From Alphaproteobacteria bacterium (GTDB lineage Bacteria > Pseudomonadota > Alphaproteobacteria > UBA828), in assembly GCA_963422645.2 (NCBI GenBank), contig CAXXVO010000005.1:320001-384000 (forward strand): DNA of 64,000 bases, in the 5' to 3' direction. The position numbers were made by a program, and so were the translations under genes. The notes below the pieces were generated by a model. The model was not told the DNA's origin, ran no database searches, and saw only the letters and a program-made list of their open reading frames with translations. Below, in pieces: positions 3,083-25,680 of this stretch. The first letter of the stretch is position 1. Every line of letters starts with the position of its first letter.

Positions 3083-3168
3083 TGGTGGAGGGGGTAGGAT
3101 TCGAACCTACGTAGACATACGTCGGCAGATTTACAGTCTGCTGCCTTTAACCACTCGGCCACCCCTCC
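3083..3168 (-). tRNA. tRNA-Tyr (GTA)
   Basis: Reverse complement GGAGGGGTGGCCGAGTGGTTAAAGGCAGCAGACTGTAAATCTGCC...GGTTCGAATCCTACCCCCTCCACCA; long variable arm. Confidence 0.97.
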
Positions 3169-3205
3169 GCGCCGAGGTGGACGCGCCCAGGACTCGGAAC
3201 GGCGC

Positions 3206-3233
3206 ACTATGAACATCCGCGTTCGATTGTCAA
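3206..3233 (-). promoter_or_regulatory. Sigma70 promoter of the tRNA-Tyr/tRNA-Gly/tuf transcript
   Basis: Minus strand TTGACA-16 bp-CATAGT followed by GC-rich discriminator GCGCC, about 40 bp upstream of tRNA-Tyr. Confidence 0.7.
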
Positions 3234-3355
3234 CGCCCAAAGGAGCTCTCCGTGACGGCCCACCGCGCCATCGGCCGCGGCGTCAGCGCGCGCCGGGCGG
3301 CCCGAATGCCGGGGCGTCTCGCAAAAGGGATTGAAGTCTTATAATAGGGTGCGTC

Positions 3356-4192
3356 ATGGCACGCAACAGTTCTCGCCGCCCGCGCGAGCGTGGAGCCGGG
3401 CGCCGGCGTACGCATCAGGAGCAACGCGCCCAGGCGCGACCCCGTCGCGAGCGGCTCTATGGCACCCATGCCGTGGCCGCCGCGCTCTCCAACCCGAGCC
3501 GCCGCTGCCATCGGCTGATCGTGACCGAGGAGGGAGCTGCGCTGCTCGCCGAGCGAACCGACTTCCGAATGCTTCCGCTCGCCGCCCGTGCCTTGCTCGA
3601 AGCGCCGCAGATCGTCTCGCGCCAGGATGTCGCCGCCCTGTTGCCGGAGGGCACCGTTCATCAGGGCATCGTGCTCGAGACGGCGCCGCTGCCGGCGGTC
3701 GACCTCGCTTCTGCCTGCCGCGGCGTGGTGCAGAGGGCGGAGGGCGCGCGCATCGTGGTCGTGCTCGACCAGGTAACGGATCCGCACAACGTCGGCGCGA
3801 TTCTGCGCTCGGCGGCGGCCTTCGCGGTGGGGGCCGTCGTGGTTCAGGACCGGCATTCGCCGCAGGGCGCCGGCGCGCTCGCCAAGGCGGCGTCCGGCGC
3901 GCTGGAGACGGTGCCGCTTGCCCGGGTCGTCAACATCGCGCGCGCCCTTATCGTGCTGAAAGAGCTGGGGTTCTGGTGCCTCGGCCTCGACCATGACGCG
4001 CTCGAGCCGCTCAGGGCCGTCAGCGTGAAGGCGCCGCTCGCGCTCGTGCTGGGCGCCGAAGGCCAGGGCATGCGCCGGCTCACTCGCGAGCGCTGCGATT
4101 CGACCGCGAGCATCCCCATGCCGGGCTCGATGGCGAGCCTCAACGTCTCCAACGGCGCCGCCATCGCGCTCTACGAAGTTTCGCGGCAATGA
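3356..4192 (+). CDS. rlmB: 23S rRNA Gm2251 2'-O-methyltransferase (SpoU/TrmH family)
   Basis: LYGTHAV, HQG, LDQVTDPHNVGAILRSAAAF, LGAEGQG, SLNVSN motifs; divergent from tRNA-Tyr as usual in Alphaproteobacteria; TATAAT at 3340-3345. Confidence 0.92.
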   Translation: MARNSSRRPRERGAGRRRTHQEQRAQARPRRERLYGTHAVAAALSNPSRRCHRLIVTEEGAALLAERTDFRMLPLAARALLEAPQIVSRQDVAALLPEGTVHQGIVLETAPLPAVDLASACRGVVQRAEGARIVVVLDQVTDPHNVGAILRSAAAFAVGAVVVQDRHSPQGAGALAKAASGALETVPLARVVNIARALIVLKELGFWCLGLDHDALEPLRAVSVKAPLALVLGAEGQGMRRLTRERCDSTASIPMPGSMASLNVSNGAAIALYEVSRQ

Positions 4193-4313
4193 GCGGGGCG
4201 ACTGGAAAGGAACGCCGGGCGCGGCAGCGCGGCGCCCTTCGCCTTGACTCGGCTGGCAGGCCGCGCTTGATAGCGGGTCTTCCATGATCGCGCGCGCCTG
4301 CAGCGGCCGATCG

Positions 4314-4389
4314 GCCGGCGTAGCTCAACTGGTAGAGCACTTGATTTGTAATCAAGGGGTTGCGGGTTCGAGTCCTGCCGCCGGCACCA
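4314..4389 (+). tRNA. tRNA-Thr (TGT)
   Basis: GCCGGCGTAGCTCAACTGGTAGAGCACTTGATTTGTAATCAAGGGGTTGCGGGTTCGAGTCCTGCCGCCGGCACCA. Confidence 0.97.
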
Positions 4390-4435
4390 ATCGAGTTGGG
4401 CTGCGGAACGCCGCCGCCCGCGCCACGGATCCAGC

Positions 4436-5659
4436 ATGGTCAGCGCCGCTGCCCTGATCGTCGCCGCCGGGCGCGGCCACCGGGTCGGCGGGCCCCTGCC
4501 CAAGCAGTACCGCCAGCTCGCGGGGCGCGCGGTGCTGGGCCACAGCATGCAACGCTTCGCGACCCACCCGGGCATCGACAGGGTCAGGGTGGTGATCAAC
4601 CCCGCCGACCAGTCCCTCTATGACGAGGCGGTGCGCGAAAGTGGCGGTGTGGCTGGCGGCGCGCTGCTCGCGCCGGTGGCCGGCGGCGAGACCCGGCAGG
4701 ACTCCGTGCGAAAGGGCCTGGAAAGCCTGGCGGACGCACCGCCCGACCTGGTGCTGATCCACGACGGCGCGCGGCCCCTGGTTTCCGCCGCCGTGATTGA
4801 CGGCGCGCTCGATGCGCTCGAAGGCCACGACGGGTCGCTGCCTGCGCTCGCGGTGAGCGACAGCCTCAAGCGGGCGGCGCCGAGCGGTGCCGTGATTGCG
4901 GGCGCGGTGCCGCGCGAGGGGCTCTGGCGCGCCCAGACCCCGCAGGGCTTCCGCTATCCCGCCATCCTTGACGCCCACCGCGCTGCGGCCGGCAGCGCGC
5001 TGACCGACGATGCCGCGGTGGCCGAGCAGGCCGGGCTCTCCGTGGCGCTCAGCCCCGGCGACGAGGACAACCTCAAAATTACCACCGAGCAGGATTTCGC
5101 CCGTGCCGAGCGCATCCTGGCGGCGCAGGGTGCGCGCGACGTCGCTACTGTGGCCGCATTCGAAACCCGCGTCGGCATGGGCTTCGACGTCCACCGCTTC
5201 GGCCCCGGCGACCACCTCATGCTGGGCGGCGTGGCGGTGCCGCACGCCCAGGGCGTGGTCAGCCACTCCGACGGCGACGTTGTGCTCCACGCCATCGTCG
5301 ACGCGCTGCTGGGCGCCTTGGCGGCGGGCGATATCGGCACCCACTTCCCGCCCTTCGACGAGGCCTGGCGGGACGCCGAGTCCGCGCGCTTCGTAACCCA
5401 TGCGCTGAAGCTCATGGCGGAGCGCGGCGGCCTCCTCAGCCATGTGGATGTCACGGTGATCTGTCAGCGGCCCAAGATCGGCCCGCACCGTGAGGCCATG
5501 ATGGCGCGGCTCGCCACTCTTCTGGGCTTGGACCCTGCCCGCATCAGCCTCAAGGCGACCACGACCGAGCACCTCGGCTTCACCGGACGTGGCGAGGGCA
5601 TCGCTGCCCAGGCAGTCGCCACGGTCCGACTGCCCATCGAGAGCGGAAATGACCGCTGA
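4436..5659 (+). CDS. ispDF: Bifunctional MEP cytidylyltransferase / MEcPP synthase
   Basis: AAGRGHR..PKQY, IHDGARP, AQTPQGF, NLKITT (IspD); [28 protein letters not shown] (IspF). Confidence 0.96.
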
Positions 5660-19314: not shown

Positions 19315-19449
19315 GTAATGCTTCCGTTCTCAGGTGATGGATGGTGATTTCACCGATTGAGTGTCCGCTTCCAGTCTCGTCGGAGAGGCCGCAGCCAGAT
19401 GTCCCTCCTGGGCTCGGCCCGCTTCATGTGCGTGTCGTAGCGCCCGCGC
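19315..19449. repeat. 135-bp terminal inverted repeat, left copy
   Basis: Reverse complement of 25546-25680 with one mismatch seen (gtccctcc vs gtccttcc). Confidence 0.92.
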
Positions 19450-19494
19450 AAAAGCCTCTGGTAACGCCGCCGGTGATTCGATATCGTCTCGCCC

Positions 19495-21933
19495 ATGGCG
19501 ATGCGAGACGAGGATTTCGGGACGGCGCTGACACCGACCGAGGGGGACGAGGCGATCTGGTCGCCCCCCATGTCGGCGCCGGCGAGCGAGCCGCGCGACT
19601 GGCAATCTCTGTGCGAACAGGCGCAGGCGCGGGCGGAAGCAGCGGAAGCGCGTGCGGAAGAGTTGCGCTGGGCGGAAGTCGCCGCCCGCAGCGATGCGGG
19701 TGCGTGGAAGTCGCGGTTCAAGGCCTGCCGGCAGAGGCTGAGCGAGGCCGAGGAAGAGACCGGGGACCTCCGCCGCGCGGCCAAGGACGTGCCGGCCTTG
19801 CAGGCCGAAGTGGCGCACTTGCAGGAGTTGCTCTCCGAAGCCCGCAGCGTATCGAGCGAGTTCGGCACGATCGAAGCGCTGCGCGACGAGGTTGCTCAGT
19901 TGCAAGAGGCCCTGGCGTCGAAAGCCCGGAAGGACGCGACGGGGCCACTGTCGAGGGAGAATGCCCGGCTCCGCAAGACCCTGGAGCGGTCGCAGGGACA
20001 GAAGGACGAGGTCGCGGCGTTGCGCGGAGAGGTCTCGGCGCGGCGCAAGTCGGAGCGGGCCGCGCAGACGGCGCTGTCGAAGGAGAGCATCCGGCTGGGC
20101 AAGGCGCTGGAACGGACGCAGAAGCAGAAGGACACGGTCAAGGCGCTGCGCGAGGAAGTCGATTCCCTGACCCGGGAGACCCGTCGGCAGAACCGGGAGA
20201 ACGGCCGGCTGCGCCGCGAGCTGGAGTGGTTGCAGGGCATCAGGGCGACGGCACGTGGGTTGTCCGACGAGGTCGAGCTGCTGCGCGCGGAACTGGCGGA
20301 ATACCACGACCAGACGAACTTCATCGATTGGCAGGACAGGCGCATCGTCGACTTGCAAATTGCCCTGGATACGTCGGCCTTCAAGACCGAGCGGCTGGAG
20401 GCCGAGCTTGCCGAACGTCCCCTGCTGCCTGCGGCCTTGAAGAGATTGCGCCAGCAGGAGAAGACCATCGAGTCCCTGCGGGCCCGGATCGAGACGCTGG
20501 AAGAGGAGCTGGCCAAGCTGCGCTCGAGCCGGGCCGTCCTGTCGAAGGCGCTCCACGGCAGGAAGAGCGAGCAGCAGCAGAAGCCCGGTACGGGGCGCAA
20601 GCGCGGCCAGCAACGCGGCGCGCCCGGCCACGGCCGCACCCCGCGGCCCAAGCTCCAGGAGAAGAAGGAACGGCGCAACCCGCCGAAGGATGCGCGCATC
20701 TGTTCCTGTTGCGGCAAGCCCTATGTCGCCAACGGCGAACGCTCCACGAGCCTGATCGAGATCGAGGTCAAGGCCCACATCCGCAGGATCGTGCGGCCGC
20801 GCTACCGCCGGGGCTGCGAGTGTGCGTCCTCGCCCCTGGAAGCGATTGCGCCGCCGGTGCCGCGGCTGTTCCCCGGAACGCTCTTCGGAACCAGCTTCTG
20901 GGCACGGTTCCTGTTCGAACACTGTGGGTGTCTGCGCCCGCTGTGCCGGGTCGCCGCGTGGTACGGGGACCAGGGGCTGCCGGTCTCGCCGGGTACGCTG
21001 GCCAACAGCCTGAAGCGCTTCGTGCCGCTGTTCGACCCGCTCTACGAGGCGATCCTCGCGCACCAGAACACCGCGGCGTTGCGCCATGCCGACGAGACCG
21101 GCTGGCGGGTACAGGAGTTCCGCGACACCGGCCGTTCGAGCCGCGCCTGGCTGTGGGTCTCGGTCAGCAAGGATTCGGTCTACTACATCATCGACCCCTC
21201 GCGCAGCGCCGAGGTCGCAAGGACCCTGTTCCGCGACACCGCCTGTATCGTCTTCCTGGTCTGCGACCGCTACAGCGCATACAAAACGCTGGCGCGCGAA
21301 CTCGCCGGCAAGGTGATCCTGTGCTGGTGCTGGGCACATCAGCGACGCGACTTCGTCGACTGCGCGACCGGGCAGGAGGCGCTGACCGAATGGTGCCAGG
21401 AATGGGTCGAGCGGATCGCGCTCGTCTACCACCTGAACGACGAACGGCTGAAGCATTACGACCCCGCTCTCGAACGCCAGACACGGGCCTTCGACGCGGC
21501 GCAGCGCAAGCTCGGAAGGGCGGTCAAGCGCCTGTTCGCGGACGCCGAGGCGGAACTGGCCGGCCTGCCGGACAAGGACCGTCGGGCAAAGCCCTTGCGC
21601 TCGCTGCTCAACCACCGCGAAGGGTTGTGCGTCTTCGTCGACAATCCCCAGGTTCCGATGGACAACAACGCCGGGGAGCGGGCGATCCGCGGGCCGGCCA
21701 TCGGGCGCCGATTGAGCTTCGGTTCCAACAGCGAGGACGGCGCGAAGTTCACCGCGACCATGTACTCCGTCATCGGCACGCTCTCGATGAACGGCATCGA
21801 CGTGCCGCGCTGGCTGGAGGCATGGTTGAAGGCCTGCGCGGAGAATGGCGGCAAACCGCCCGACGACCTGTCCCCATGGCTGCCGTGGACGATGAGCGAG
21901 GCGCGCAGGCGCAAGTTCACGGCGCAGGAATGA
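19495..21933 (+). CDS. IS66-family transposase TnpC with long repeated coiled-coil N-terminus (812 aa)
   Basis: KRGQQRGAPGHGR, CSCCG zinc finger, HADETGW, VCDRYSAY, CWAHQRRDF, DNNAGERAIR, PWLPW. Confidence 0.9.
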   Translation: MAMRDEDFGTALTPTEGDEAIWSPPMSAPASEPRDWQSLCEQAQARAEAAEARAEELRWAEVAARSDAGAWKSRFKACRQRLSEAEEETGDLRRAAKDVPALQAEVAHLQELLSEARSVSSEFGTIEALRDEVAQLQEALASKARKDATGPLSRENARLRKTLERSQGQKDEVAALRGEVSARRKSERAAQTALSKESIRLGKALERTQKQKDTVKALREEVDSLTRETRRQNRENGRLRRELEWLQGIRATARGLSDEVELLRAELAEYHDQTNFIDWQDRRIVDLQIALDTSAFKTERLEAELAERPLLPAALKRLRQQEKTIESLRARIETLEEELAKLRSSRAVLSKALHGRKSEQQQKPGTGRKRGQQRGAPGHGRTPRPKLQEKKERRNPPKDARICSCCGKPYVANGERSTSLIEIEVKAHIRRIVRPRYRRGCECASSPLEAIAPPVPRLFPGTLFGTSFWARFLFEHCGCLRPLCRVAAWYGDQGLPVSPGTLANSLKRFVPLFDPLYEAILAHQNTAALRHADETGWRVQEFRDTGRSSRAWLWVSVSKDSVYYIIDPSRSAEVARTLFRDTACIVFLVCDRYSAYKTLARELAGKVILCWCWAHQRRDFVDCATGQEALTEWCQEWVERIALVYHLNDERLKHYDPALERQTRAFDAAQRKLGRAVKRLFADAEAELAGLPDKDRRAKPLRSLLNHREGLCVFVDNPQVPMDNNAGERAIRGPAIGRRLSFGSNSEDGAKFTATMYSVIGTLSMNGIDVPRWLEAWLKACAENGGKPPDDLSPWLPWTMSEARRRKFTAQE

Positions 21934-22833
21934 CCGGCGCCATCGAGTGCCGGTACTACGGGCGCGACTTCACCGCCGAGGAGATGGCGCTCCTGCGCGT
22001 GCTCATCGCCGCCGGCCCACCGCCCAACCGCCATGCCCTGTCGAGGGAGTTCTGCCGGCGCATCGGCTGGTTCAAGCCTGACGGCGGGCTCAAGGACATG
22101 ATGGCCAGGGTGACGATGCTGGCCATGCACAAGGACGGCCTGATCGTCCTCCCGCCGCCGAAATGGCCGCGCCCGCCGCGCCCGCCGCGTCGGCCCATGG
22201 TCTTCGGACCCGACACCGAGCCGCCGGTGCATCCGGCGCCGACATCCCTCGACGCGGTTCGCCCGCTCGATCTGCGGCCTGCCGTCCGCTACAGCCGCGA
22301 GGGCAAGCTGTGGAACGAGTTCGTCGCCCGCTACCACTATCTCGGCTACAAGACCCTGGTCGGCGCCCAGATGCGCTACGCCGTCCACGACCGTGACGGC
22401 CGGCCCATCGCCATGCTCGGCTTCAGCACCGCGGCGCGAAAGCTCGCACCCCGCGACCGCTTCATCGGATGGACGCCGCAGTCGCGCGAGAAGAACCTCC
22501 CGCTTGTGATCGACAACCCGAGGTTCCTTATTCTGCCCTGGATCGTCATCCCGAACCTGGGCTCGCACATCCTCTCGCTCGTGCGCCGGCAACTGCCCGG
22601 CGACTGGGAGGCGCGCTTCGGAGCGCGCCCGGTTCTGGTGGAGATGAAGGCTTCATAATGCTTCTCCGTTGTGCAGGTGGGCGGGCGTTTCTACCGCATT
22701 GATAGAAAAGGCGGTTTGGATTCCGTTGTTGCCGCCGCGGCGACCTTTACATCGTGCCGGACGTGATTTTCCAGTATCGCACGTTGGAGGTGCGGATCTG
22801 CATCGGGCGTTTTGCCTGACGGTCCGGGCATGG

Positions 22834-25014
22834 TCACCCCCCATCACCGTTGAGCCCGCGCAGCAGCGGCAGTTCGTCCTCGACCGGCAAACGCACATAC
22901 AGTCCGCGCGTCTTGCCGCGGGTCACATGGCAGCTGTCCAGCCTGCCCGCCTTGATCCGTTCCCAGACCGTCTGCCGCGTGACACCCAGACGATCCATTG
23001 CCACAGCGAGGGGAACAAACCCCTCCGGAGGCGCCTCACGAAAGCGCTCGCGCAAGGTCGGGGTCATCCGGATCCGAAGAGGAGCACCTTCGATATCGGG
23101 CTGGGCAACCGGAACCAGCCCCTCGCGGATCCAGCGATAGATGGTGTCATCCGAGACTCCGATCTCCTTCGCCACATCGGCAACGCCCATGAGCACCGGC
23201 TCGTCCCCGTCGGGCTGGTAGGGCGCAATGCCATGGCGGCGACGCAGGCTGCCAACAAGCTCGGCCGTGAAATCCAGACCCCGTGCTGTGCGCCGTCCCT
23301 GGCGGGTGAGAACCTTCGCGGTCTCCCGGTCGTTGTAAAAGCATGACAGCTTGCGCACGAGCTCGACCGTGCTGCGCTCATCGCGCCGGGGTGTCGGAGA
23401 GCCCGCGAGCATCGGCAAAGTGATCTCGTCGATCTGCCCGCCACGCCAGCGCAATGTTGCCATGATCTCACGCTCCTGTCGCGCAAGCTCGATCGTCACC
23501 TCGTCGAGGAGGCAGGCGAGCAGGCGCTTGCGCTCGCGCATGGTCGTCGACGACGCCCCCCAGACCTGCGACAGGCGCGCGCCGAGACCCTCGAAAACCG
23601 CCGGGGCAGGGGCCGCGGGCTGACGCGCCCGTGCCGCCTCAAGCGCTTCCTGTGCAGCCTTCTCGGCGCGAAGCGCCTTCTCCCACTCGCGCTCCAGCGT
23701 TGCCGCAATCAGACGGTTGTCGGGATCGACCTGCTTGTAGCGCCGCTCGGCAAGCCGCGCCTCGTACCGGCAGTGCTCAAGATCCAGCTCCCAACGGCGC
23801 AACGCGCGCAGGCCGCGTTCAGCAACATCACAAGCCGCCTGCCGGGCCGCCTCCACCCCCGCCGGCGTGACCGCATCGAGAAACAGACGGGCAACTTCCG
23901 CATCAACGCGCTTGCCGCCTGTCGACCAACAACCGCCGCGCCGGCGCGCAGCATCGCGCTTGCGGCACTCATACCCCCAGCCCGTCTTGCTGTAGTAGAC
24001 GGTCATCGGCAATCCGCAGCCGCCGCAGACCGCGAGACCCTGGAGCAGAGCCGACCCTTCCCGCGCCGCGCCGCGGGCTCCGTCCGGAGCCATGTGGTTG
24101 CGGGCCAGCTGCTCCTGTACTTCAAGCCATTCTGCCCAACTGACATATCCCTCATGCTTCTCCGGCTGAAGAATATCCCAGCGCTCCTGGACCGGCCGCA
24201 GCGGCGCACCGTGACCAACGCCGCGTTTGAAGCCGTAGGCATAGGCGCCGCCCATCGCCGGGTTGGTGAGGATGCGGTACACCCGTTCATAGCGCGCCGG
24301 GCCCCATTCCAATGCTGCCCCCGGGTGCCGGCGAGAGGGAACATCCTCGCCCGCCTCACGCAGCAGCATCGTCGCCTGGCGGGCCGAACCGGCTTGCCGA
24401 AAACGCGCAAAGACCGTTGCAATCGCCGCCTGAACCCGGGCATCCGGATCCTTCCGCAAAGTCGAGCCATCCCGCACAAATCCGATCGGAACGCGCGAGT
24501 ACAACTCGCCACGAAGCGCCTTGTTCCGCTTTCCGCCCTCCATCCGGGCGCGAATAAGAGACAGCTCAGCGGCGCTCACGGTTCCCTTGATCCCCAGGAC
24601 AAGGGAGTCGTCGTCCCGGCTCGGGCAGTAGATGTGGCAGTCCTCAACCAGAACCGTGTCGTGCCTGCGACATAGATCGAGAAGCTGAAACCATTCCATC
24701 GTGTTCCTGGCGAGCCGCGAAACCTCAATCCCGAAGATGCCCCCGACATGGTCCCGGGCGATCAGGTCGCACATCTCCCGAAAGCCGCCACGCTCGCCGC
24801 GCGCCTTCTCGCTTGCGCTCTCGCCAAGATCGGCGTCGATCGTCCGTATCCGCTCGGCCGGCCAGCCAATCTCCCGGGCACGCTCGCCAAGCGCGTATTG
24901 GCGCAGCTGCGATTCCTGGTGCGCGTTCACTTGCAAGGGTGTCGACTGGCGAACGTAGACAACTGCAAGACGCTCAAGATGACGCTGGGTGATCTTCGAC
25001 GGATCGACCGTCAT
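22834..25014 (-). CDS. Large serine recombinase with zinc ribbon and two C-terminal HTH motifs
   Basis: AVVYVRQST catalytic serine, DADLGES, EVSRLARN, ILTNPAMGG, CGGCG..C..C, VDPDNRLIA; C-terminal VAKEIGVSDDTIYRW and LGVTRQTVWERI. Confidence 0.92.
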   Translation of the reverse strand: MTVDPSKITQRHLERLAVVYVRQSTPLQVNAHQESQLRQYALGERAREIGWPAERIRTIDADLGESASEKARGERGGFREMCDLIARDHVGGIFGIEVSRLARNTMEWFQLLDLCRRHDTVLVEDCHIYCPSRDDDSLVLGIKGTVSAAELSLIRARMEGGKRNKALRGELYSRVPIGFVRDGSTLRKDPDARVQAAIATVFARFRQAGSARQATMLLREAGEDVPSRRHPGAALEWGPARYERVYRILTNPAMGGAYAYGFKRGVGHGAPLRPVQERWDILQPEKHEGYVSWAEWLEVQEQLARNHMAPDGARGAAREGSALLQGLAVCGGCGLPMTVYYSKTGWGYECRKRDAARRRGGCWSTGGKRVDAEVARLFLDAVTPAGVEAARQAACDVAERGLRALRRWELDLEHCRYEARLAERRYKQVDPDNRLIAATLEREWEKALRAEKAAQEALEAARARQPAAPAPAVFEGLGARLSQVWGASSTTMRERKRLLACLLDEVTIELARQEREIMATLRWRGGQIDEITLPMLAGSPTPRRDERSTVELVRKLSCFYNDRETAKVLTRQGRRTARGLDFTAELVGSLRRRHGIAPYQPDGDEPVLMGVADVAKEIGVSDDTIYRWIREGLVPVAQPDIEGAPLRIRMTPTLRERFREAPPEGFVPLAVAMDRLGVTRQTVWERIKAGRLDSCHVTRGKTRGLYVRLPVEDELPLLRGLNGDGG

Positions 25015-25165
25015 CGGCCGCCTCCCGATCCGCAATCCGAACCATCAGATCGGCCAGACCCTGCACGACGCGATCCCGGTCCGGAGCCGGAAACGCCAGC
25101 CACCGGTCCCGGCGCTCCTCCCACTCCATCAGCGCGATCAGCGCCAACTCCTGCTCCGCATCCAT
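24974..25165 (-). CDS. Small accessory protein of the recombinase element
   Basis: 63 aa, W..FPAPDRDRVVQGLADLMVR pattern, typical of the small ORF preceding this recombinase class; overlaps the recombinase start. Confidence 0.6.
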   Translation of the reverse strand: MDAEQELALIALMEWEERRDRWLAFPAPDRDRVVQGLADLMVRIADREAADDGRSVEDHPASS

Positions 25166-25469
25166 CGCGCCTGAGTTCCCTCTCATCAAGGTCATTCAGA
25201 AGATTAAGGAGGGTGAGGAAATCAGACAACTCTCCGATCAGGCGTGGTGCATCCTCGGGACGGGCTCCAAGGCTCGTCCATGCCGCTGGTATCCAACAAC
25301 AGCTGCCGTCCGGCATCCGAACCTTCAGAGTCCGGCCCCCGTAACCTCCTTTGCGCCGATCGAGAATCTCGATCGCCTCACCGTCGAAAGGATGCTTGTA
25401 GCGTCGAATGCGAACGGGCTCAGGAGCCTCGGAAGCCTGCAAGATAGTAGTCTGTGACGTTCGTGGAGA
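25011..25469 (-). CDS. DUF5372/Y4bD-like accessory protein whose 5' end is separated by the att site
   Basis: VRIRRYKHPFDGEAIEIL...MPDGSCCWIPAAWTSL; frame is open through the junction; RBS and ATG lie at the other end of the element (22654-22667). Confidence 0.7.
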   Translation of the reverse strand, partial: SPRTSQTTILQASEAPEPVRIRRYKHPFDGEAIEILDRRKGGYGGRTLKVRMPDGSCCWIPAAWTSLGARPEDAPRLIGELSDFLTLLNLLNDLDERELRRDGCGAGVGADRADGVGGAPGPVAGVSGSGPGSRRAGSGRSDGSDCGSGGGR

Positions 25470-25545
25470 CCTTCGTCGAGACGCCCCGCTACACCGGCGC
25501 CGTCTACAAGGCATCCGGCTGGATCCGCGTCGGGACCACCCAGGG

Positions 25546-25680
25546 GCGCGGGCGCTACGACACGCACATGAAGCGGGCCGAGCCCAGGAAGGACATCTGG
25601 CTGCGGCCTCTCCGACGAGACTGGAAGCGGACACTCAATCGGTGAAATCACCATCCATCACCTGAGAACGGAAGCATTAC
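25546..25680. repeat. 135-bp terminal inverted repeat, right copy (includes the DUF4338 3' end)
   Basis: Reverse complement of 19315-19449. Confidence 0.92.

Follow-up and report, generated by a model that had tools for sequence, protein, structure and literature searches.

A cargo-free serine-recombinase element of an alphaproteobacterium with its attachment site inside a DUF5372-like gene

The window examined here is a stretch of 64,000 nucleotides (nt) from an Alphaproteobacteria bacterium genome (GenBank assembly GCA_963422645.2, contig CAXXVO010000005.1, positions 320,001 to 384,000); coordinates and the terms plus and minus strand refer to it. The window carries a mobile element that encodes a large serine recombinase (LSR). 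The element (22645-25462, about 2.83 kb) is cargo-free, holds three minus-strand reading frames only, and breaks a plus-strand DruA/DUF4338-like gene between 22644 and 25463. Its attachment site lies inside the first of the three frames, a DUF5372-like gene. In the integrated copy, the ribosome-binding site (RBS), the ATG and the first codons of this gene are found at one end of the element, pointing outward, and the body of the gene is found at the other end without a proper start. The same split layout was found in all five recombinase families scored. We propose that a complete gene would exist only where the two ends are joined, as in an excised circle, and that the first gene would be efficiently translated only in that state. 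As a whole, this explanation is the best we have for the data, and we give it a probability of roughly 0.6.

The split first gene and the ends of the element

The element is bounded by two copies of the crossover core GAGA, at 22641-22644 (left) and 25466-25469 (right). Next to the left core is the element's 3'-terminal arm (the P' arm in its attachment site attP; 22645-22667, minus strand), which carries a Shine-Dalgarno (SD) motif GGAG (22667-22664), a 7-nt spacer, an ATG (22656-22654) and codons 2 to 4, AAG CCT TCA (22653-22645), all pointing outward. At the right end, the first-gene frame (25011-25469, minus strand) runs without a stop from 25469 to the TGA at 25013-25011 and contains an SH3-like domain at about 25191-25394. 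From the core to the domain, the frame contains a single codon of the types ATG, GTG or TTG, a TTG at 25442-25440 with no SD-like motif within 14 nt. When the ends are joined through one core, the terminal ATG reads into the DUF5372-like domain in an open reading frame (ORF) of 156 codons, with the TTG as codon 14. In the integrated state, reading from the same ATG gives a peptide of 36 residues that is antisense to the DruA-like gene.

A first-pass annotation, made from the letters alone, had described a DUF5372-like frame open up to the core with a bare TTG as its only start, the GGAG-N7-ATG AAG CCT TCA block abutting the other core, an in-frame reading across the joined ends, and a short antisense peptide in the integrated copy. 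Each of these descriptions held when the sequence was checked. The annotation had also placed the att site inside this accessory gene, and the crossover does fall in the 5' part of the first gene, with the 156-codon joined ORF on one side of the comparison and a startless body plus a short outward peptide on the other. When the terminal 60 nt of the window element were shuffled, 9.5% of the sequences contained an in-frame open ATG, and 0.85% contained an ATG of this kind together with an SD-like motif.

The boundaries were observed in many copies. The genome contains 11 left ends and eight full plus three partial right ends, which are 100% identical over the 200 nt tested, and the terminal arm is the same in 11 of 11 copies. 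A locus on contig 18 is the exact empty site of the copy on contig 14, with flanks that match over 400/400 and 300/300 positions and a 7-nt overlap. A tblastn search with the DruA part gave 36 hits, and 28 of them reach the insertion site (11 occupied and 17 empty). Insertion is always at one conserved codon stretch of DruA-like genes (..V/I-E / T-F-V..).

The core had been given in the first-pass annotation as TCTCCAC. Seven base pairs are indeed identical at the two ends of the window copy (GTGGAGA at 22638-22644 and at 25463-25469). However, in three of the 11 copies, which lie in a DruA variant, the left junction reads ATCGAGA rather than GGTGGAGA, and therefore only GAGA is common to all copies. 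The 7-bp identity in the window copy is partly resemblance between attB and attP, and the crossover dinucleotide is within the GAGA core.

The insertion is precise, has a very short core at both ends and shows no inverted-repeat transposon ends, as in LSR-type insertion. The element is an insertion sequence (IS) in the loose sense: it is present in multiple copies (11) and has mobility genes only, without classical terminal inverted repeats and a DDE enzyme. Among the copies of the recombinase ORF, six are identical and uninterrupted, one is open at 98% identity, two have a premature TAA and two are frameshifted. Since six recombinase ORFs are identical and intact and the ends are 100% identical, the activity of this element, which moves by site-specific recombination, is recent.

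A recombinase scan of genome contigs yielded two relatives with about 92% DNA identity, L104 and L105, from metagenome-assembled genomes labelled Thalassobaculaceae and Paracoccaceae. Both have the same 3' end and different flanks, are truncated or decayed without a 5' end, and again lie in DruA-like genes; their distribution points to spread between alphaproteobacterial families. The terminal arm is unchanged in both. The non-coding spacer between the recombinase stop and the terminal ATG (22657-22833, minus strand) gave no Rfam match, and its last 60 nt or so are nearly invariant in L104 and L105.

Some of the copies in the window's own genome are broken by other insertions (contig 8, 600123-601175; contig 5, 442013-444962 and 27791-31507). 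Two orphan right-end fragments were also seen (contig 3, 209157-209321; contig 5, 27627-27791).

Conservation of the layout among recombinase families

Relatives of the element were collected from other genomes of the same genus, where the recombinases are 36-39% identical to that of the window. Class-level hits were added, and an order-level search matched 10 of 49 genomes, all in the window's genus. The ends of each family were set by multiple copies or empty sites, and the terminal ATG was not used for this purpose. Five families were scored: that of the window; the G042 type; the G038 type, with four copies in IS3-type transposase genes (F-Y-N motif; for example, L018); L013 of genome G039, which lies in a tyrosine-recombinase-like gene with empty sites L073 and L074; and the G238/G202 type, which lies in an IS110-like transposase gene (V-K-P-F / V-K motif; L057-L059 in G238).

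In all five families, the crossover is preceded, at a distance of 11-14 nt, by an ATG that reads in frame and without a stop into the first gene, and an SD-like motif is located 4-14 nt upstream of this ATG. When the terminal 60 nt were shuffled, the frequency per family was 0.09-0.13 for an in-frame open ATG and 0.008-0.014 for one that also had an SD-like motif. The products over the five families are 1.5e-5 (ATG) and 1.7e-10 (ATG plus SD-like motif) if the families are treated as independent, and they overstate that independence because the five families are homologous, which weakens them as support for the joined gene. A fairer reading would be that the layout was kept while arm sequences, cores and targets diverged. 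An SD-like motif is missing from every in-element ATG, GTG or TTG codon of the five families, and L013 lacks such codons altogether.

One repeat was discounted in the frame check. It is a 169-bp sequence resembling a miniature inverted-repeat transposable element that sits 19 nt inside the 5' end of L013 (positions 3931-4100), has more than 25 copies at 95-100% identity in G039, and is accompanied by a 5-bp duplication, TGCCC.

Several loci were left unscored: L026 and L079-081, in which the shared region is bounded by other events; L012, the 5' end of which is cut by another IS; L062, with a broken recombinase; L060, with no recombinase; L088, L090, L094 and L096, with no usable 3' end; a second DUF5372 remnant on contig 8 of the window's own genome; and the ssb-inserting family of G046 (L091-093), together with L089, L020, L116 and L117.

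The G042-type first gene is a bona fide member of Pfam family PF17342 (DUF5372; 74.6 bits), and in its group the geometry of the split is fixed: GAGGTG-N4-ATG, 14 nt, the crossover dinucleotide, 59 nt, and the His codon of a T-H-P-F motif. We compared the dinucleotide 14 nt after the ATG with the one that precedes the His codon by 61 nt. The two were equal, and the joined ORF was open, in 15 of 15 copies from eight lineages and in three of three copies from a ninth; depending on the lineage, the dinucleotide is CG, TG, AC or TT. A tenth lineage, L115, which the script omitted at its SD filter, fits by hand reading with TT at both ends. Conservation of the cross-junction frame had been set beforehand as the test that could refute the proposal, and the frame is conserved in 5/5 recombinase families and in 18/18 scored plus one hand-read copies of the DUF5372 group.

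In this group, the stop of the recombinase gene falls between 49 nt before and 11 nt after the ATG, and the two overlap as ATGA in the G045 and G043 lineages. Since the ATG is coupled to the recombinase stop, a circle would make the genes into a closed ring with translational coupling. At the position of the internal GTG that gene callers choose in other lineages, L014 carries GTA, and the 78%-identical relative P0001 has no Met between the junction and the domain. From these data, we consider it likely that the split layout is maintained by selection.

The first gene could instead be translated in the integrated state as a fusion that starts in the flank, antisense to the target gene, with the target supplying the start. 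The frame is open into the flank in all own-genome copies (159-257 residues), the window flank has an in-frame ATG and GTG, and database proteins such as P0065, P0068 and P0075 are read-through calls of this kind. However, the flanks differ by target family, in-frame stops lie just upstream in several of them (L103, L097, L057 and L058), and the flanks show no conserved start or SD. We regard such a fusion as very improbable.

Internal starts, circles and the proteins of the element

A more serious alternative is that the terminal SD-like motif and ATG are a by-product of the attP half-site bound by the recombinase, that translation begins at an internal GTG or TTG (or ATT) of integrated copies, and that the cross-junction frame is merely tolerated. 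The following observations weigh against a gene assembled at the joint, and the first of them bear directly on this alternative. The two attP arms are imperfect inverted repeats that both contain the motif GA(G/C)GTG(Y)AGT..TGAA..GC, including GA(G/C)GTG and TGAA, and the other arm carries it as GACG...TTGAAA. Because the motif is in both arms, the fact that the SD-like GAGG and the TGA of ATGA are conserved is confounded with recombinase binding. GC-rich DNA has few stops, so an open frame of 25 codons is weak evidence. The leader is variable in sequence and predicted to be disordered, with a predicted local distance difference test score (pLDDT) of 53-71 for residues 1-20.

The homologues also supply internal starts. 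Gene callers and the Pfam profile begin at an internal V or M: most database homologues are called from an internal GTG, and the DUF5372 profile starts at V-T-H-P-F. Several homologues have a Met at or near the domain start. The closest subfamily has it at the position of an Ile in the window protein (MRRFRHPFDG), another example is MEKQRFRVTHPF.., and some G042-type homologues have a Met six residues before T-H-P-F. Actinobacterial-type members appear to have their own short N-termini (MT...). The joined form was absent among 20 homologues sampled from 242 hits, none of which had the 3'-end leader at the expected spacing, and a near-length protein word search with the window ORF gave no match.

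The ssb-inserting family adds a further point. The divergence point of its three copies (L091-093) is without a nearby start codon, and the 3'-end candidates differ between copies; these candidates are probably chance matches. The family could be a counter-example if the divergence point is the true end.

Circles and promoters were searched for as well. The circle junction occurred 0 times in the own assembly, and the Logan contigs of four runs contained no back-joining contig; since contigs drop rare forms, this contig-level absence is no evidence against circles. A 21-nt junction probe had four hits in metagenome contigs, all four in unrelated genes, one of them GlmU-like. The first-pass annotation had supposed that recombination probably also reconnects the operon to its upstream signals. 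The linear form has no sigma-70-like or consensus promoter. In the joined form, no sigma-70-like pair (at least 8 of 12 positions) was found from 260 nt before to 120 nt after the joint, where shuffled sequences gave a mean of 0.38.

Against the half-site explanation, the arms of the window, G038 and L013 elements cannot be aligned with one another, yet all keep the in-frame ATG and the SD-like motif. The other arm carries the motif without GAGG and without ATG. The internal GTG has been lost in L014, internal starts are absent from L013, and none of those present elsewhere is backed by an SD-like motif. The ATG is in tight coupling with the recombinase stop, in two lineages to the point of an ATGA overlap. 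The first-pass annotation had held that internal starts in homologous elements would speak against its proposal; some homologues do have a Met or GTG near the domain start, and the cross-junction frame is nevertheless conserved. On this balance, we find the half-site explanation unlikely, and the joined ORF is probably the main translated form of the first gene.

The lengths of PF17342 proteins in the database follow the called start: 101 residues from the internal GTG, 80-82 residues from a later ATG, and more where the call reads in from the flank. The annotated N-termini of PF17342 members are unreliable. The N-terminus MVRRSL of P0068 and P0075 was considered as an element 3'-end leader and rejected, as it is encoded by conserved flank.

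Under the gene assembled at the joint, the cycle would run as follows. Integration takes place by attP x attB recombination at DruA-like genes, themselves carried in IS66-type units, with the crossover between codons 4 and 6 of a first gene that encodes a DUF5372-like SH3-type barrel and a helix. Integration leaves the RBS, the ATG and four codons at the far 3' end of the element, outward behind the recombinase gene, and the body at the 5' end without a proper start. Only attP-configured DNA, an excised circle or a tandem junction, would hold the complete gene, and the circle would be a closed ring of first gene, small ORF, recombinase and first gene again. Efficient translation of the first gene would be limited to the excised state, and the downstream genes may follow the same restriction, as the first-gene stop overlaps the recombinase ATG. 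Element functions would be expressed in a burst in the phase when the circle has to reintegrate and would fall silent after integration, in a translational parallel to the circle-specific promoter of Tn4451. Formation of the circle, translation of the joined ORF and a role of its product as a cofactor or regulator are all plausible on this sequence evidence.

The window ORF scores 18.3-20.1 bits against the Pfam DUF5372 profile, below the cut-off of 25. A DUF5372 match was obtained in 17 of 22 aligned relatives at E <= 0.01, and phmmer gave 64 relatives. The window protein is a divergent DUF5372 relative rather than a certified member. The AlphaFold2 model is a small beta-barrel with a C-terminal helix (mean pLDDT 81.5), for which Foldseek returned only weak SH3, Tudor and PetP-like matches (best E = 0.12, none <= 0.001).

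The recombinase gene (22834-25014, minus strand) encodes 726 residues from an ATG at 25014. The first-gene stop overlaps this ATG as ATGA, and 6 nt upstream of the ATG is a GGAGG that belongs to the recombinase gene itself. It could then be argued that the first gene is a decaying remnant, functionless in the window lineage, and that the element needs only the recombinase with its own GGAGG and ATG. The window ORF lies under the Pfam cut-off, the tail of the first gene is overlapped by another ORF, and four of the 11 recombinase copies have a premature stop or frameshift. However, the domain has been kept open and conserved in different families and is modelled with a confident fold, and the first gene is identical in all intact copies. 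We think it improbable that the gene is a remnant.

Between the first gene and the recombinase lies a 73-residue ORF (24974-25195, minus strand), which overlaps the tail of the first-gene frame and the start of the recombinase gene and had no Pfam or NCBIfam hit. Its motif, FPAP..LA.LM.R, shares one reading frame with the DUF5372 domain in several homologues, where the two are fused (P0029 and P0047), and the calls P0004 and P0005 run on into the recombinase N-terminus. The first-gene domain and the 73-residue ORF may be one functional unit over two frames in the window. The low-complexity tail of the first gene (25011-25195) overlaps the small ORF in the +1 frame; the overlap may reflect a frameshift site, or the two frames may have split recently. 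At another locus, L060 (G321, 3114-4688), a DUF5372-like gene 49% identical to that of the window is followed immediately downstream by an intact DruA-like gene that runs in the same orientation, and no recombinase is near it.

The recombinase matches the Pfam families Resolvase (62 bits, cut-off 23.3), Recombinase (41 bits, cut-off 21.1) and HTH_17 (39.9 bits); Zn_ribbon_recom scores 24.2 bits, slightly below its cut-off of 25.3. An alignment of 14 recombinases shows no variation at residues Y20, R22, Q23 and S24 of the nucleophile motif or at C330, C333, C350 and C362. In NCBIfam, the protein is XisF-like, and the 'excise' domain TIGR01764 scores 28.2 bits against a cut-off of 28.8. The HTH_17/'excise'-type DNA-binding domain lies at residues 609-700 or so (window 22834-23200) and is conserved across the related families in the 14-sequence consensus. 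With this C-terminal domain, the recombinase in effect carries an Xis-like module of its own.

The 5' part of the target gene (21936-22644, plus strand) matches Pfam DruA with 95.6 bits, and intact paralogues read through the site. The 3' part (25466-25645, plus strand) matches DruA with E = 2.8e-4 at profile positions 186-225, and its continuity with the 5' part is known from the empty sites. Together with an IS66-family transposase gene (19495-21933), the target gene forms a host unit on the plus strand at 19315-25680. The unit is flanked by 135-bp inverted repeats (19315-19449 and 25546-25680, 99% complementary), the right one of which includes the 3' end of the DruA-like gene. The transposase has 812 residues and a long coiled-coil N-terminal part, and matches DDE_Tnp_IS66 with 197.6 bits and NCBIfam transpos_IS66 with 288 bits. 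The host unit is composite, and the genome has at least 28 DruA-like genes of at least three sequence types.

The related mini-elements insert in conserved coding motifs of genes typical of mobile DNA, including IS3-type, IS110-like, tyrosine-recombinase-like and ssb genes. They look like parasites of other mobile elements. A more far-reaching scheme, which we put forward only tentatively, combines these observations: attP in the first gene would act as a translational excision sensor; a full DUF5372-type protein made only from the circle, with its start coupled to the recombinase end, would drive or lock reintegration through the recombinase or its DNA sites; and the family would be a guild of hyperparasitic elements on DruA, IS3-type, IS110-type, tyrosine recombinase and ssb genes.

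Comparison with known systems

If the joined gene is used, the element would sense its integrated or free state in a very compact way, with no regulator and only the placement of the crossover between start codon and gene body. This would extend the ideas of circle-specific promoters and of attP within a gene to translation initiation in bacterial serine-recombinase elements, and would give DUF5372 a testable role. For annotation, it would mean that the first genes of the family are systematically mis-started, from an internal GTG or ATG or by read-through from the flank. The several LSR/att pairs defined here, with 2-bp cores and precisely mapped natural targets, are also raw material for integrase tools.

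The first-pass annotation knew of no description of such a family. The literature searched contained no mention of DUF5372 and nothing on this element family or on an attP that parts a start codon from its gene, and to that extent the statement stands. The belief that there is no description of anything similar goes too far, as both attP within a gene and circle-specific expression have precedents.

Lyras and Rood reportedly showed in 2000 that the circular intermediate of Tn4451/Tn4453 forms a promoter for tnpX, the gene of the large resolvase TnpX. Like Tn4451, the element described here is an LSR element whose joined circle ends would create an expression signal missing from the integrated form. 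In Tn4451, however, the joint makes a promoter for the recombinase, whereas here the joint would assemble the coding sequence of an accessory gene that has its RBS, ATG and 4-5 codons at one end and its body at the other. No split -35/-10 pair was found across the joint of our element.

Circular intermediates of the IS911, IS30 and IS110 types carry junction promoters. Like these, the present element is multi-copy and cargo-free, and its excised circle would have expression signals that the integrated copy lacks. Unlike these, which use DDE or DEDD transposases and have promoter halves in their ends, it relies on site-specific recombination and has a split start codon and ORF.

The first-gene product also invites comparison with the recombination directionality factors (RDFs) of serine integrases. 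Like phiC31 gp3 and SprB, it would be a small protein encoded beside an LSR gene. Unlike these RDFs, it has no sequence or fold relation to them that we could find (best Foldseek E = 0.12), and an RDF produced only after excision would not fit the usual RDF logic. The first-gene protein is a candidate recombination cofactor or directionality factor, a role that we consider possible and rather doubtful.

Archaeal integrases of the SSV1 type, called 'suicidal', have attP within the integrase gene, and recombinases that break up the gene encoding them are known, according to a review, only in archaea (PMC8371274). In Mx8, attP lies inside the integrase gene intP (PMC6070905). Like SSV1 and Mx8, our element has a recombination site within one of its genes, which is split or altered on integration. 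Unlike them, in which the tyrosine recombinase gene itself is affected, it is a bacterial serine-recombinase element and the upstream accessory ORF is split.

In mycobacteriophage BPs, attP lies inside the repressor gene 33, and immunity depends on integration (PMC4557955). BPs and our element both have attP inside a non-recombinase gene, and the integrated and excised states encode different products, which would be a built-in state sensor. The two differ in the enzyme and in the end of the gene that is exchanged. In BPs, a tyrosine integrase exchanges the 3' end, a degradation tag is removed, and the integrated form is active; in the element described here, the 5' start end is removed on integration, and it is the excised form that would be expressed.

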